Source: Terrimicrobiaceae bacterium (lineage in GTDB: Bacteria > Verrucomicrobiota > Verrucomicrobiia > Chthoniobacterales > Terrimicrobiaceae). Taken from it: a stretch of 64,000 nt of DNA. The DNA lies in the NCBI GenBank assembly GCA_044342325.1, contig JBIIPZ010000004.1:36418-100417 (forward strand), given 5' to 3'. The notes beneath the pieces are model-generated. The model saw only the letters and a program-made list of their open reading frames with translations. It had not been told where the DNA came from and did not search any database. The translations under genes and the position numbers were made by a program. Of this stretch, positions 27,368 through 49,076 are shown piece by piece. Each line of letters opens with the position of its first letter. Positions within the stretch are counted from its first letter, which is position 1.

Positions 27368-28144
27368 ATGTTGAAAGATACGCAAAACGAACGGGACGAG
27401 CGGCGCATGCCGATCGATCGTGTGGGAGTGAAGTCTCTGCGCTACCCGCTGCAGGTGCGCGACAAGGAGCACTCTGTTCAAAGCACGGTCGCTACCATTC
27501 AGCTCACGGTCGACCTGCCGCATCATTTCAAAGGCACCCACATGAGTCGATTCATCGAGGTTCTCTCGGAACATGGTCCCGTGATCCATGTGGAAAACAT
27601 CCGCGACATCCTCGAGCAAATGTGCCGGCGGCTCGAGAGCGGTTGCGCACATCTCGAAATCGAATTTCCTTTTTTTCTCGGTAAAAAAGCACCCGTGAGC
27701 GGAGCGGTCGGCCTGATGGATTACACCGTCCGCTTCAGCGCGACCCTCGAAAACGGCGAGATGGATTTTGTTGTCACCACCATCGTGCCTGTGACCACCC
27801 TCTGCCCTTGCTCCAAGGCGATCAGTGCGGCTGGTGCGCATAACCAGCGTGGGCATGTGACACTCTCGGTTCGCTGTAAAAAGCCGATGTGGATTGAAGA
27901 TATGGTGCGTCTTGCCGAGGAGTCCGCCAGCGCCGAGCTTTTCAGCCTGCTGAAGCGTCCCGATGAAAAACATGTCACCGAACAGGCCTACGAGAATCCG
28001 GTCTTCGTCGAAGACCTGGTGAGGAATGTCGCCGTTCGTTGCGAGGCGGATCAGAATATCCTCTGGTATCGCGTGGAGGTGGAGAATTTCGAGTCGATCC
28101 ACAATCACAGCGCTTACGCGCTCATCGAGAAAAAAGGCGTCTGA
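27368..28144 (+). CDS. folE2: GTP cyclohydrolase IB
   Basis: KGTHMSRF, TTLCPCSK, AHNQR, LKRPDEK, FVED, ESIHNHSA. Confidence 0.95.
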   Translation: MLKDTQNERDERRMPIDRVGVKSLRYPLQVRDKEHSVQSTVATIQLTVDLPHHFKGTHMSRFIEVLSEHGPVIHVENIRDILEQMCRRLESGCAHLEIEFPFFLGKKAPVSGAVGLMDYTVRFSATLENGEMDFVVTTIVPVTTLCPCSKAISAAGAHNQRGHVTLSVRCKKPMWIEDMVRLAEESASAELFSLLKRPDEKHVTEQAYENPVFVEDLVRNVAVRCEADQNILWYRVEVENFESIHNHSAYALIEKKGV

Positions 28145-28147
28145 CGC

Positions 28148-28573
28148 TCAGGCTTCGTTGATTTCTTTCGTCTGGAGTTTGGCAACGAGGACTCGAAGCA
28201 AAACCACTCCAGCGAGCGCGCCGCTCATGTCTGCGATCCAATCCTCAAGGCTCAACCCTGAGCGTCCGGGGATGAATTGCTGGTTGTATTCGTCGAGCGC
28301 GCCGAGCAACCCCATTATTAGCGCTACTGCCAAGAGCAAACGGATGCCTTGCAGCTTGGCTAGAAGGTGCAGAGAGGCCGCAAGGACGGTTCCGCCGCCG
28401 AGAAAAAATACGAAGTGCAGAATTTTATCCTGCTGAGGAACGACCATTTGAGGCATCTCCGTCGGCACGCTGTTTGAGACATGATAAAGAATAGCGAGCC
28501 AGATTCCGAAAAGCGCCGTCGGCACTGCGGGGCGGTTGAGTGTGAAATCCAGAATTCGGGAAATGGTAGCCAT
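28148..28573 (-). CDS. VanZ family membrane protein
   Basis: DKILHF...DEYNQQFIPGRS...DWIAD. Confidence 0.85.
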   Translation of the reverse strand: MATISRILDFTLNRPAVPTALFGIWLAILYHVSNSVPTEMPQMVVPQQDKILHFVFFLGGGTVLAASLHLLAKLQGIRLLLAVALIMGLLGALDEYNQQFIPGRSGLSLEDWIADMSGALAGVVLLRVLVAKLQTKEINEA

Positions 28574-28763
28574 GCAAATGAGTGCGGCATTTTTACCAGT
28601 TGGAGAGCGAAGTGGAGCTTTTTCACCACCGTATTGGTTTTCAGCTTTTGCGTGCTACGGGGATTTTTTAGACAGAATTTACAGATTTTAAAAAATTTAA
28701 GGGCAGTAACTTGCTTTGAAATTGTTTCGTTTGATGCGCGAGATTTTGCGGCTGGCGAAGACT

Positions 28764-28779
28764 TGGCACAGGGGTTGCT
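28764..28779 (+). promoter_or_regulatory. Sigma54 (-24/-12) promoter
   Basis: TGGCAC-AGGGG-TTGCT with exact GG-N10-GC spacing, intergenic, with an AT-rich tract about 60-100 bp upstream. Confidence 0.85.
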
Positions 28780-28789
28780 TAATTAGGCA

Positions 28790-28872
28790 TCAAAGAACAG
28801 CCCGGCCGTAGGGAGGGTAAGCTCACAAACTTGGGGGAGGGAGTGAGCTTGGGACGGCCGGGTTGTTTTTTT
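28790..28872 (+). ncRNA. Putative sigma54-dependent small RNA (about 80 nt, family not recognised)
   Basis: Starts at the predicted +1. Outer stem 28796-28809/28854-28867, inner stem 28819-28826/28843-28850, ends in T7; no credible ORF follows. Confidence 0.7.
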
Positions 28873-29250
28873 GCTGCCACCGCCAACTCATTCATGGAGA
28901 TATCCAGTATTCCTCCTGGTTGCGGATCGCGCCAAGTCTGTAGGGTCCAGTGCTCTAATCCTATGGCTCTGCCTTGAGTCTTTCGTGGCTGTAGTGCTTG
29001 TTTGGCGGGGTGGTGTCTGGGGGTCGTCCGGTGGCTTCCGAGGGAATATTTGGGTCAAGCCGGAGGTCGACCCTCCAAGGACTGCGCGCTGCCGCGCTGG
29101 CGCTGTAGCGGCGTCTCTATGAGCGCCGGGAAAAAGGGCGGATAAAATCCTTTGTTTTGGTCAATCGCAGAAGCGCTTTGCTGCTTCGGCATGACATGCG
29201 AATATCGTGTCCGCACGTCCCATTTGTTCTGTCGCCGCCTCGCCGGGAAC

Positions 29251-29802
29251 TCAGTGTCCCCTCAACAAAAACCATCCTGCGATACCGCCGAGGAGCATCA
29301 GCAGAGCAGGGTTGATGTGTTTGGCGAAGAGAATTCCTGTGACGGCGAGGGCGGTTATGCAGGTGATGGTGTTGAAGTGTGTGCTGTGGCTGGGATTGAT
29401 GCAGGCCGTTTTTCCGACGGCGTGGACGCCTGCGAGCATGAGGCCGATGGTGATGGGGGCCATGCCGCGTTGCACGGAGGCGCGCCAGGGGTTGTCCTTG
29501 AAATGGTCCCAGATGTAGCTGCAGCCGTAGGTCAGGAAACTCGAAGGCAGGTAGAATGCCACGAGTGCGATGATGAGGCCTGCCGCGCCGGCTGCCTGCC
29601 AGCCAATAAGGGCAACCATCGACATGTTCGGGCCCGGAGCCATCTGGCCCAGACTGTAAATCGTGGCGAATTGGTCGCCGGTGACCCAGTGGTGAAGAGT
29701 AACGGTCTCGTGTTCCATCTGTGGCAGCACGGCGCTACCGCCTCCTACGGCGAGCAGCGAGAGGAGGCAGAAGACATTCAGGATTTTTACGAGGTCGCTC
29801 AT
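29251..29802 (-). CDS. Chromate transporter (short-chain CHR), subunit 2
   Basis: AVGGG, HWVT...F...LGQMAPGPN. Confidence 0.88.
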   Translation of the reverse strand: MSDLVKILNVFCLLSLLAVGGGSAVLPQMEHETVTLHHWVTGDQFATIYSLGQMAPGPNMSMVALIGWQAAGAAGLIIALVAFYLPSSFLTYGCSYIWDHFKDNPWRASVQRGMAPITIGLMLAGVHAVGKTACINPSHSTHFNTITCITALAVTGILFAKHINPALLMLLGGIAGWFLLRGH

Positions 29803-30362
29803 GGGTTTGGCTTCGCCGACTTCGGGCGGCAGAGAATGATGGCGACGGGGGCTATGAGAAAAAGCACCACTGGCAGGGACACATGGTGGAAGGCCACGAG
29901 ATAAAAAGTGCCCAAGACGAAACACAGGTCACGGAGGTTCAGGAATTGCTTCGCGCCGATCTTGAGGGTGACCTGCAGAAGTAGACCCACAGCGGCTGCG
30001 GCGACTCCTGCCAGCGCGGCGGCGACATTCGGATTGTGGCGGAAGCGGTCATACAAAATTCCCAACACCAACAAAAGCAACACACCAGGAAGAATCAGGC
30101 CCAAAGCTGCCGCAACAGCGCCTTGTGGGCCGGCCAGTTTCCGCCCGGCAATGATCGCTACATTCACGGAGTTCAGGCCTGGCAGTGTCTGGCCGATTTC
30201 CAGAGCGGCGAGGAATTCCTCCTCGTCCATCCACTTTTTATCGGTGACCAGCGCATCGCGCAAGTAGGCGACGAGACCGCCGCCAAAGCTGGTGATGCCG
30301 ATCTTGGCAAAAACGCGGAAGATTTCCGGCACGCCCGGCATATTACTCGCTGCGGGTGGCAT
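29799..30362 (-). CDS. Chromate transporter (short-chain CHR), subunit 1
   Basis: TSFGGG, KKWMDEEEF...GQTLPG; start 30362 or 30341. Confidence 0.88.
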   Translation of the reverse strand: MPPAASNMPGVPEIFRVFAKIGITSFGGGLVAYLRDALVTDKKWMDEEEFLAALEIGQTLPGLNSVNVAIIAGRKLAGPQGAVAAALGLILPGVLLLLVLGILYDRFRHNPNVAAALAGVAAAAVGLLLQVTLKIGAKQFLNLRDLCFVLGTFYLVAFHHVSLPVVLFLIAPVAIILCRPKSAKPNP

Positions 30363-31215
30363 GGGGAGACTGTCCGAGTTGGTAAACAAGCGCTGTCTTG
30401 GTGGTGCCGAGCGAGACCCACTCGTGGGCGTCGAGTTGGAGCGTTTTGTAGAAATCCTCCGCACGCTTCAGGCTCGACTTGTGGATTTCATCCTCGCTGT
30501 CAAAGCGGCACTGGAAGGCGAATTCACCGCAGAAGGCCCGCTCGTATTTACGCGTGCGCCACACGGCGATTGTTGTTTTGCCATTGAAACCTCCGCCGAA
30601 GTGCAGTTCGCCCACATCCACCTGCACCTCTTCCACTGCCATGTCATTGACGAGCCGGAGCGGAGTCTCATGGTCCGCTCCGACCTGGTGGATCGCTGGA
30701 AACGCCCCGGCCAAATCCTTCACGGCGACTTCCAAACCCTCGCGCGGTTTCGCCAGCACGCAGTTGTGCGAAAAAATGGAACGCGCCCCGCCCAGCGTCT
30801 CCCGCAGCGGCAAGAGCTCCTCTTTGAATTTAATCTTGGCGATGCCTCCCGATGTCGCCGGACGCACATCCACCGCTGCGGCTTCTTTAAAATCCGGATG
30901 CCGGAATTTGAATGTGAGTTCTGGAATCCCCTGCGGCCAACCGCCTTTGTAATGCGTGCGCAAACGCAGGATGAAGTGGTTTTTATAAAGCGCAAAATCC
31001 TCTGTGTCGTAGAAAAGAACCTCCCGCACATTGCTCTCAAAGGCGTTCTCAGCCTCCTTCACCTTCACATCAAACTTCTTCGCCGTCACCCGGACAATGC
31101 TCCAGAAATCTACGAATGCCTGCGGCGAAGTGAAATGCTGCGCCTGCAAAATGATCTTATACTCGCGATACTGAATCCGGTCCTGGGGGGTATTTTCGAT
31201 TTCGTGCTTCGACAT
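30343..31215 (-). CDS. Hypothetical protein, CYTH/triphosphate-tunnel-like
   Basis: N-terminal REYK, FYDT-DF-LY...ILRLR, LTFK, late E-F; start ATG 31215. Confidence 0.55.
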   Translation of the reverse strand: MSKHEIENTPQDRIQYREYKIILQAQHFTSPQAFVDFWSIVRVTAKKFDVKVKEAENAFESNVREVLFYDTEDFALYKNHFILRLRTHYKGGWPQGIPELTFKFRHPDFKEAAAVDVRPATSGGIAKIKFKEELLPLRETLGGARSIFSHNCVLAKPREGLEVAVKDLAGAFPAIHQVGADHETPLRLVNDMAVEEVQVDVGELHFGGGFNGKTTIAVWRTRKYERAFCGEFAFQCRFDSEDEIHKSSLKRAEDFYKTLQLDAHEWVSLGTTKTALVYQLGQSPHATRSE

Positions 31216-47642: not shown

Positions 47643-47699
47643 TCCCCAGCCTTGAGCGCGGGATTGATGCGGCGGCGTGTTTGCAGTCTACTCGTGAGG

Positions 47700-49076
47700 A
47701 TGTCCGCAACGCTGCTCATTGTTGATGACGAAAAAAATACCCGTGACGGTCTCCGCAATGCGTTGGATTCCGAGTTCGAGGTCTATGTCGCGCCGGATGC
47801 CGATGGCGCGCTGGCCACGCTCGAGAGCGTGCCGGTGGATGTCGTGCTCACCGACCTGCGCCTCGGCGGGGATGATGGCATGTCGCTGATCGAGCGGATT
47901 GTCAAAAAAGCGAATCCGCCAATTTGCATCATGATGACAGCCTACGGATCGGTGGATACCGCTGTGGAGGCGATGAAGCGCGGAGCCTATGACTTTGTCA
48001 CGAAGCCCGTGAATATCGACCGACTGGAAATTCTCATCAAGCGTGCTCTCCGCGAGCGTAACACCAACCGCGAAAACAAGGAGCTTCGCTCGAAGGTTCA
48101 GAACCAGTTCCGCGTCGATGGCATGATCGGCCGATCGCCCGCGATGGTGGAGGTCTTCGACACCATCAAGCAGGTTGCTCCCTCGCGCGCCACTGTGCTC
48201 GTGCAAGGCGAGAGCGGCACCGGCAAGGAACTCGCCGCCCATGCGATTCACGAACTCAGCCCACGCTCGAAGGAGAGATTCGTGGCCGTCCACTGCGCAT
48301 CTCTCACTCCCGAACTCCTCGCTAGCGAGCTTTTCGGCCATGAAAAAGGCGCCTTCACCGGAGCCTTTGAACGCCGGATCGGCCGCTTCGAACAGGCCAA
48401 GGGGGGCACACTTTTCCTCGATGAGATCGGCGAGATTGACCTCACCACACAGGTCAAAATCCTTCGCGTCCTGGGCGAAAGAACCTTCGAACGCGTCGGA
48501 GGAGGGGAGACCCTCTCCGCCGATGTGCGCCTCATCGCCGCGACAAACAAAGATCTCTCCAAACTCGTCGCCGAAGGAAAATTCCGCGACGACCTTTTCT
48601 TCCGCTTGCATGTGGTTCCCATCACCATGCCGCCCCTGCGCGACCGCAAGGTGGACATCCCTCTTTTGGTGGACGCATTTCTGGGAGAAACCGCACTCGA
48701 AAACGGGAAGCCCCATCGCGAACTCACCCCAGAGGCCATGCAGCAGATTCTCGAATACGATTGGCCGGGGAATGTCCGCGAATTGCGCGCCGCGGTGGAG
48801 CACGGGGTCGTTATGGCCTCAGGTTCACAAATCACTCTCCGCGATTTGCCAGCGACCCTTCGCGCCCCCAAAAGCCAGCCTGCCGTCCCAGGTCCGCCAT
48901 CCGTTCATTCCAGCGGATTGAATTTGCGCGACACCGAGACATCGCTTATCCTCCGCGCGCTTGAGGATTGCCGGGGCAACCGGAGCGAGGCTGCCAAGAA
49001 ACTTGGTATCAGCCGCCGCACACTTCACCGCCGCCTCAGGGAATTGAATCTCTTCAAACGCTCGTCACACTTGTAA
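47700..49076 (+). CDS. Sigma54-dependent response regulator (NtrC/AtoC family)
   Basis: Receiver domain (VDDE, TD), GESGTGKE, GAFTGA, WPGNVREL, Fis-type HTH. Confidence 0.93.
   Translation: MSATLLIVDDEKNTRDGLRNALDSEFEVYVAPDADGALATLESVPVDVVLTDLRLGGDDGMSLIERIVKKANPPICIMMTAYGSVDTAVEAMKRGAYDFVTKPVNIDRLEILIKRALRERNTNRENKELRSKVQNQFRVDGMIGRSPAMVEVFDTIKQVAPSRATVLVQGESGTGKELAAHAIHELSPRSKERFVAVHCASLTPELLASELFGHEKGAFTGAFERRIGRFEQAKGGTLFLDEIGEIDLTTQVKILRVLGERTFERVGGGETLSADVRLIAATNKDLSKLVAEGKFRDDLFFRLHVVPITMPPLRDRKVDIPLLVDAFLGETALENGKPHRELTPEAMQQILEYDWPGNVRELRAAVEHGVVMASGSQITLRDLPATLRAPKSQPAVPGPPSVHSSGLNLRDTETSLILRALEDCRGNRSEAAKKLGISRRTLHRRLRELNLFKRSSHL

Follow-up and report, generated by a model that had tools for sequence, protein, structure and literature searches.

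A sigma-54-type promoter and a covarying G-tract hairpin define a candidate small RNA family in one order of Verrucomicrobiota

Several bacterial small RNAs (sRNAs) are made under sigma-54 control. The Qrr1-5 RNAs of Vibrionaceae are small, terminator-ended, trans-acting sRNAs that depend on sigma-54 and the NtrC-family response regulator LuxO, and GlmY and GlmZ of Enterobacteria use sigma-54 with GlrR, one of the pair acting as a decoy and the other as an anti-antisense RNA. CrcZ and CrcY of Pseudomonas are driven by sigma-54 and CbrB and sequester Hfq/Crc through a repeated short unpaired motif, while NrsZ of P. aeruginosa is an NtrC/RpoN-dependent nitrogen-stress sRNA. Related papers deal with the CbrB regulon (PMC6296734) and with an NfeR1-NtrBC loop in rhizobia (PMC10746234). 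Here we analyze an intergenic element in a 64-kb stretch of Terrimicrobiaceae DNA (assembly GCA_044342325.1, contig JBIIPZ010000004.1; hereafter the window, to whose 64,000 nucleotides all coordinates refer). A preliminary description, made from the letters alone, had read this element as a complete sRNA transcription unit of a family it did not recognize, consisting of a sigma-54 promoter and a terminator-ended hairpin. The reading of a self-contained sigma-54 unit is supported by the joint conservation of promoter and structure, by covariation, by the lack of an Rfam match and by the presence in the genome of rpoN and three enhancer-binding proteins (EBPs). The element is very probably a real sigma-54-dependent sRNA gene, with transcription and 5' end predicted from the sequence, and its family is new and, in the genomes searched, limited to a single order of Verrucomicrobiota, which we take to be the Chthoniobacterales of GTDB.

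The unit is made up of the following features, in which "genus copies" are those from the window's genus:

28764-28779, plus strand: sigma-54-type promoter TGGCACAGGGGTTGCT, identified from the sequence, with the -24 element TGGCAC at 28764-28769, the spacer AGGGG and the -12 element TTGCT at 28775-28779
28790-28872, plus strand: predicted sRNA of ~83 nt, its 5' end placed by the geometry of the promoter, its 3' end by the U7 tail
28796-28809, plus strand: 5' arm of the outer stem, AACAGCCCGGCCGT; 14-bp stem; across 30 genus copies its ten core pairs are paired at 100%
28810-28818, plus strand: 5' internal loop, AGGGAGGGT, with the family-wide core AGGG
28819-28826, plus strand: 5' arm of the inner stem, AAGCTCAC; perfect 8-bp stem
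28827-28842, plus strand: apical loop of 16 nt, AAACTTGGGGGAGGGA, with the order-wide core U-G5-7-A; nearly invariant in 30 genus copies
28843-28850, plus strand: 3' arm of the inner stem, GTGAGCTT, partner of 28819-28826
28851-28853, plus strand: 3' internal loop, GGG, which reads GGGA in the window's genus only
28854-28867, plus strand: 3' arm of the outer stem, ACGGCCGGGTTGTT, partner of 28796-28809
28866-28872, plus strand: U7 tail of the intrinsic terminator (T7 run), from the sequence and a terminator scan

The consensus TGGCAC-N5-TTGCT promoter lies where the preliminary description had placed it, and it carries the GG at -24, the GC at -12 and the exact spacing that define the TGGCAC-N5-TTGCW class of sigma-54 promoters. 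The -24/-12 geometry predicts an RNA start at ~28790, about 11 nt 3' of the promoter, in agreement with the +1 proposed earlier. This pattern occurs once in the window against an expectation of 0.27, and one or more occurrences turn up in 22 of 100 shuffles; the string alone is thus not improbable, and the case for the unit rests on its conservation in other genomes. The slightly relaxed pattern TGGCAY-N6-TGCW precedes the RNA in all 30 genus copies, in 36 of 37 copies from other genera (the single exception has a promoter spacer shorter by 1 nt) and at 18 of 20 RNA loci from other families. The distance from promoter to outer stem is 14-22 nt within the family, and in three other families (f5, f6 and f11) the promoter lies ~25-30 nt further upstream of the RNA stem. 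Letters between promoter and stem diverge freely among copies, as does the region further upstream.

The fold stands well apart from those of shuffled sequence. The minimum free energy of 28785-28875 is -48.2 kcal/mol; dinucleotide shuffles (n = 200) average -26.85 (sd 2.91), which gives z = -7.34, and not one of them is equally stable. As had been described, an outer stem (14 bp, 28796-28809/28854-28867) runs into a T7 tract at 28866-28872 and encloses a perfect 8-bp inner stem with internal and apical loops. A terminator scan marks the hairpin site too, and with an A-rich stretch 5' of the stem the hairpin looks like a terminator in either direction. Copies from six other families, each folded as a single sequence, show the same architecture, and the transcripts predicted for f5, f6 and f11 have an extra small hairpin at the 5' end and, after it, a fourth G-run, GGGG(A)AAA. 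A TTG-initiated open reading frame (ORF) at 28831-28977, inside the RNA, was considered as a small gene and rejected; it is not conserved, and the sequence downstream diverges with indels.

Both stems covary in relatives, within the genus as well as order-wide. When the 30 genus copies are aligned with MAFFT, blind to structure, pairing holds in 98.4% of helix cells, and compensatory double changes are seen in 11 of 17 pairs. These changes affect five of the ten core pairs of the outer stem and six of the seven counted pairs of the inner stem, whose variants include AAGCTCAC/GTGAGCTT, GAGTTCAC/ATGAACTC, GACTTCA/TGAAGTC and CGCCCAC/GTGGGC. On none of the main measures is this matched by any of 500 shuffles, and in controls with the partner shifted by 1-3 columns pairing falls to 23-42%. 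An order-wide alignment of 54 copies from eight families, which was fitted to the model and so favors structure, has 95.5% of cells paired and compensatory changes in 16 of 17 pairs (9/10 in the outer stem, 7/7 in the inner stem). G-U and U-G pairs occupy several stem positions in both the genus and the order-wide sets; since the opposite strand would have A-C mismatches in their place, the folded molecule is the plus-strand RNA.

Order-wide, the only invariant unpaired letters are G-runs. GGG stands in the 5' internal loop of 29/30 genus copies and of 35/36 from other genera, the apical loop carries the U-G5-7-A run in every inspected copy from other genera and families, and GGG is likewise conserved in the 3' internal loop. 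The preliminary description had emphasized two GGGAGGG loops. These exist in the window, but the conserved motif is AGGG, G5-7 and GGG, and GGGAGGG is peculiar to the window's genus. That genus has GGA at all three exposed sites (29/30, 30/30 and 30/30 copies) and a second GGA in the apical loop; the 3' loop, which reads GGA in all 30 genus copies, does so in only 5 of 36 copies from other genera of the family. The pattern of conservation suggests that the G-tracts are probably the functional surface of the RNA.

We next consider distribution and novelty. The window's assembly (2.93 Mb in 78 contigs, 86% complete) holds one RNA copy, and the check for paralogues thus finds the RNA to be single-copy in this genome. 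BLAST recovers the unit from 32/36 other genomes of the genus at 72-95% identity and from 0/24 genomes of other families. A covariance model built from the 30 genus copies (R1) detects one copy each in 74/102 Terrimicrobiaceae genomes (14/16 genera; 43/58 high-quality genomes) and finds the RNA in 51/151 genomes sampled across the order. With a broader model (R2) the count rises to 74/151 order genomes and 11/16 families, among them all 15 genomes in each of f6 and f16, none of 15 in f14 and none of the 0.9-Mb genomes of f9; R2 finds the RNA in 0/131 genomes from other orders of the class. Promoter, fold and terminator are retained together across the order, amid changing gene neighborhoods. 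A few genomes of f6 (G133, G144, G164, G173, G195, G209 and G216) hold two or three copies, and in G209 two copies stand in tandem (locus L228:2501-2729), the second without a promoter of its own.

A collection-wide pattern scan returned 44 loci, 32 of which the covariance model confirmed at 92-130 bits. All 32 are records of metagenome-assembled genomes; most bear the title Terrimicrobiaceae, Spartobacteria, Chthoniobacter or Verrucomicrobia, three have just "bacterium", and lakes are indicated by many isolate names. We discarded the other 12 as chance matches in unrelated phyla that the model did not confirm; they include Pelobacter, Bacillota, Chloroflexota, Actinomycetes, Terriglobales, Woesearchaeota, two Alphaproteobacteria, Lichenihabitans, Isosphaeraceae and a proteobacterium. 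Against Rfam 15, the interval 27500-30500 gives only sub-threshold matches at E<=10, the best overlapping one being rnk_pseudo (E 2.3, with 20.8 bits where the gathering score is 55), and a gathering-threshold scan of five homologous loci from four families gives 0 matches. The family accordingly remains unrecognized in Rfam, and the portion of the literature consulted on Verrucomicrobia/Chthoniobacter non-coding RNA and on sigma-54-dependent sRNAs mentions no such RNA.

The genes on either side of the unit are:

28148-28573, minus strand: vanZ-like gene (PF04892), a conserved divergent neighbor of the RNA gene
29251-29925 and 29799-30464, minus strand: two half-size chromate-transporter ORFs of 224 and 221 aa (Chromate_transp, PF02417)

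The gap between vanZ and the chromate genes, both on the opposite strand as described, measures 677 bp. The two overlapping chromate ORFs look like a split pair of the short-chain chromate-transporter type and not like a single full-length ChrA, and the ~380 nt from the terminator to the end of the nearer one (28873-29250) contain only short unconserved ORFs.

A comparison of loci revealed that the unit is independent of its neighbors. At 22/37 loci from other genera of the family, the RNA lies 40-70 nt 3' of a gene for a ~590-aa BadF-type ATPase/SIS (MurQ-like) fusion, with vanZ and/or ligA divergent further upstream. This fusion (loci L117-L149, for example L119:1190-2944) joins a sugar-kinase-like BadF/BcrAD-type ATPase to a GKRP/MurQ-like SIS domain, and tblastn finds no counterpart of it in the window's genome. 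Convergent PilT-like ATPase genes adjoin the RNA at 9/37 loci (eight directly, the ninth one gene further), and 6/37 have other placements. In other families, a divergent gene for NAD-dependent DNA ligase (ligA) lies on the promoter side at 13/20 loci, preceded by a vanZ-like ORF in at least one case and, by eye, by a vanZ-like motif in others. The ancestral arrangement, as far as gene order can tell, seems to have been an sRNA divergent from vanZ-ligA. The orphan position ascribed to the promoter therefore holds in that no same-strand gene follows in the window, but not in full, as a divergent vanZ(-ligA) neighbor is kept across the order. No downstream same-strand gene is conserved among loci, nor is any ORF within the RNA conserved among copies, which together exclude a leader or attenuator. 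Own promoter, own terminator, no ORF, a covarying structure and independence of neighbors, as seen here, are the features of a trans-acting intergenic sRNA.

The window's genome encodes the machinery that such a promoter calls for. It has rpoN (contig C44) and three proteins of REC-AAA+(Sigma54_activat)-HTH_8 architecture, that is, enhancer-binding response regulators, one of them in the window, away from the RNA gene:

47652-49076, plus strand: sigma-54 EBP (REC-AAA+-HTH_8), candidate activator

The clade of this last protein is conserved in 4/5 other genera examined, and two of the three EBPs have tight orthologue clades in other genera, in a tree that also contains mis-picked ORFs on long branches (L177, L188 and L192). 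The EBP gene at 47652-49076 (locus L199) sits in an apparent operon of DUF1800, DUF1501, the EBP and a 572-aa ORF without a Pfam/NCBIfam match, and a gene for a 263-aa RRM_1 protein and miaA lie just upstream of it on the opposite strand. All three EBPs score under every NCBIfam equivalog cut-off, and the genes around them give no pointer to the RNA's activator. The most conserved EBP scores best to NtrC, at 442.7 bits and under the cut-off of 558.6, and has ortholog-level matches (59-96% identity) in 123/151 order genomes. The RNA is present in 72/123 genomes with this NtrC-like EBP and absent from 26/28 without it; the two exceptions, in which the RNA is present and the EBP absent, are genomes 84% and 89% complete. 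As the 28 EBP-less genomes represent only about three independent losses, this co-occurrence is a lead, not a demonstration.

TGGCAY-N6-TGCW occurs 34 times in the genome against an estimated expectation of roughly 22, and the sites ahead of ORFs precede flagellin (AGACTTGGCACGGGGTTTGCT, close to the site of the sRNA), flagellar rod and hook genes, amtB, a glnA-like gene and the gene for a 2104-aa RTX-repeat protein. Upstream of the RNA, conserved blocks at -60 to -150 are sub-clade-specific. The most frequent 8-mer, CAAATTGG, found in 20/63 upstream regions (inside TGCGCAAATTGGRACAT, -107 to -120), was rejected as an enhancer, as it represents C-terminal BadF/SIS codons (LQCANWDI) and owes its frequency to coding constraint. 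A 12-mer common to the sRNA upstream region and the glnA-like promoter region is of marginal significance. The 16-mer TTTTTTAGACAGAATT (28666-28681, ~-98 of the sRNA promoter), also of marginal significance, recurs with one mismatch upstream of the RTX gene (ORF 49000-55314 on contig C9, with a sigma-54-like site), where repeated ATTCTGTC-type units are found as well; it may be a shared activator site or a chance match. In closer relatives within the genus, the sRNA upstream block reads GACAGAATTTACAGAAT.

We propose the following model. Transcription from the sigma-54 promoter would need RpoN together with an activated NtrC-family enhancer-binding response regulator, and the RNA would therefore be made only when a two-component signal is on. 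The transcript would end at its own intrinsic terminator as an independent non-coding RNA of ~83 nt, folded into a single long hairpin with AGGG and GGG opposed in the internal loop and U-G5-7-A in the apical loop. The stems, free to covary in sequence, would be scaffold only, and their presumed role is to expose three single-stranded G-tracts (four in some families) as the working surface. The RNA could then act in trans, its G-tracts pairing with C/pyrimidine-rich (UCCCCCA-like) target RNAs and changing their translation or stability, with U-G5-7-A providing a seed of 7-9 nt. Base-pairing is favored by the combination of own promoter, own terminator and a conserved unpaired stretch, which is the usual anatomy of base-pairing sRNAs, and we put it forward tentatively as the mode of action. 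To the reading as a whole, a sigma-54/EBP-dependent trans-acting sRNA that works via G-tracts, we assign a probability of roughly 60%.

Several results weigh against this reading. Taken alone, the promoter string could occur by chance in a window of 64 kb, no EBP gene is found among the 147 + 40 ORFs that flank RNA loci, and no upstream enhancer motif common to all RNA copies was found, including by a family-wide inverted-repeat count. Target searches were similarly unrewarding: the complement of the apical loop has 0 exact matches genome-wide and 30 one-mismatch 12-mers, none convincing; of 275 TCCCCCA sites, 30 lie near starts of ORFs of >=100 aa and none stands out; and the leader of the neighboring vanZ pairs with the RNA no better than shuffled leaders do. 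Nor do the two glmS leaders contain a C-rich anti-Shine-Dalgarno stretch (whole-RNA duplex energies being meaningless here) or the ligA leaders a common C-run. Hfq was not found in the window's 86%-complete genome. Only ~7 nt of the apical loop are conserved order-wide, and a short reiterated motif fits a protein decoy equally. In a freshwater metatranscriptome, which contains a fraction of 0.17 of sampled words, contigs cover vanZ at 28322-28559 (identical) and two short unrelated pieces, with none at 28742-29047; because the data are assembled contigs, into which an 80-nt RNA would not assemble, the missing contig is uninformative either way.

The conserved element being short and reiterated, a decoy function fits nearly as well as base-pairing: the repeated G-tracts would sequester an RNA-binding regulator, which could be CsrA in the window's genus and would be a GGG-binding protein in the rest of the order. 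CsrB/RsmZ titrate CsrA in this manner by means of GGA motifs, and CrcZ does so for Hfq/Crc with A-rich ones. The same motif appears three to four times, unpaired, on a compact scaffold with freely varying stems, as a decoy might; the window encodes an RRM-domain protein, and the failure to find Hfq is in keeping with the idea. The extra GGA sites are found in the one genus where csrA is common, and csrA is present in the window's genome. It lies directly beside fliW (the pair at contig C24:604-1163, minus strand; loci L039/L232), on a 19.7-kb contig that also carries flgH and a flgE/F/G-type gene behind sigma-54-like sites. FliW-type CsrA is antagonized by the FliW protein, and we know of no sRNA antagonist for it. 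Across the family, csrA occurs in 34/40 genomes of the window's genus and in 3/61 elsewhere, the latter being 3/17 genomes of one other genus, so that csrA is found in 2/16 genera in all and the RNA in 14/16. CsrA titration as a general function, raised in the preliminary description, is thus contradicted, for CsrA is absent from 14/16 genera and can be neither the conserved partner nor the cause of the RNA's conservation. Flagellin has a comparable distribution (40/40 genomes of the window's genus, four elsewhere in the family), marking this genus as a flagellated lineage in an otherwise mostly non-flagellated family. The csrA-bearing genomes of the second genus lack the extra GGA (L131 and L148, compared with L123, L127, L136 and L145), the GGA gain in the window's genus counts as a single evolutionary event, and no candidate GGG-binding protein has been identified. 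These findings leave room for a secondary recruitment of the RNA to CsrA in the window's genus. We regard a decoy function overall as rather unlikely, and the more specific version, in which the RNA is the decoy arm of a global post-transcriptional system of Verrucomicrobia whose regulator recognizes exposed GGG, as CsrA does GGA, and is titrated by a sigma-54-controlled sRNA, as less likely still.

Two other explanations appear improbable. The G-runs might mimic Shine-Dalgarno (SD) sequences, pairing with the CCUCC end of 16S rRNA to restrain or tag 30S subunits in the presence of the sigma-54 signal. In the genus, GGGGGAGG and GGGAGGG resemble an SD, and with a single G-U, G5-7 could also match CCUCC. 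The leaders of flagellin (C12), amtB (C42), the glnA-like gene (C39) and vanZ (28574-28600) are A/C-rich and lack an SD, which would make strong SD-like strings unusual in this genome, as judged from these few leaders only. The proposal is pure inference from that handful, GGAGG is not conserved outside the genus, and an sRNA of ordinary abundance could not titrate ribosomes; we consider it very improbable. Slightly more remote is the explanation that no sRNA gene exists, the hairpin being a bidirectional terminator of its neighbors and the sigma-54 site either idle or serving a leader or attenuator of a downstream gene. Its A-rich and U-rich flanks do make the hairpin terminator-like on both strands. 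It stands 40-70 nt after the BadF/SIS gene at 22/37 loci, a PilT-like gene ends convergently just beyond it at eight loci and one gene further at a ninth, and other families include some loci where a gene on the same strand begins 42-92 nt downstream. Terminators, however, do not have invariant loops and an internal-loop architecture maintained across an order. Nearly all copies keep the promoter at a set distance, irrespective of what stands upstream. The downstream genes vary and are mostly on the other strand, and in the window no same-strand gene follows. The sigma-54-dependent trans-acting sRNA thus continues to be the reading we prefer.

The family would provide a first handle on RNA-based regulation in little-studied, abundant freshwater and soil Verrucomicrobia, a group for which the literature consulted in part describes no regulatory sRNA. 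Hfq was not found in this genome, and most relatives lack CsrA. The type of promoter, silent in the absence of a specific two-component signal, could serve as a genetic handle, and the RNA could mark an order-specific regulon in lake metatranscriptomes. The G-tract surface is unusual: many sRNAs typically carry C-rich seeds, of which it is the inverse. Were the GGG-decoy explanation true, the scaffold would have been retuned to GGA at every site in a flagellated genus that acquired fliW-csrA, and the RNA would be the first sRNA antagonist of FliW-type CsrA. With 100+ members, a structure and a promoter, the family is fit for Rfam as it stands.

A comparison with the described systems places the RNA more precisely. 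It resembles Qrr in that the most conserved feature across the taxon is the sigma-54 promoter and in having one to several sibling copies per genome. Qrr, however, folds into four stem-loops, needs Hfq, uses a long conserved seed that is not G-rich and is encoded beside luxO, whereas the RNA described here has no Rfam match at E<=10, comes from a genome in which Hfq was not found and has no adjacent EBP (none among the 147 + 40 flanking ORFs). GlmY/GlmZ are likewise sigma-54 sRNAs, and our RNA follows an amino-sugar-type gene (BadF kinase plus MurQ-like SIS) at 22/37 family loci; it is shorter, differs in fold and has no detected homology to them, the glmS leaders are unremarkable, and the linkage to an amino-sugar gene is absent in the window's genus and in other families. 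With CsrB and RsmX/Y/Z it has in common reiterated G-rich motifs in the loops of stable hairpins, but it has only three to four sites, GGA is not conserved outside the genus and no Rfam Csr/Rsm family matches; CsrB/Rsm promoters, moreover, are GacA/UvrY-dependent sigma-70 promoters, in contrast to the sigma-54 promoter here. CrcZ has an A-rich motif, is ~400 nt long and lies beside cbrB, unlike this G-rich RNA, with which no homology was found. NrsZ and NfeR1 possibly follow the same physiological logic, given the co-occurrence with an NtrC-like EBP, though there is no sequence relationship, the NtrC assignment is under its cut-off and the EBP-RNA link is a phylogenetically non-independent co-occurrence. 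The RNA is thus of a known kind, the sigma-54/EBP-controlled riboregulators represented by Qrr, GlmY/Z, CrcZ and NrsZ, and forms a new family without homology to any of them.

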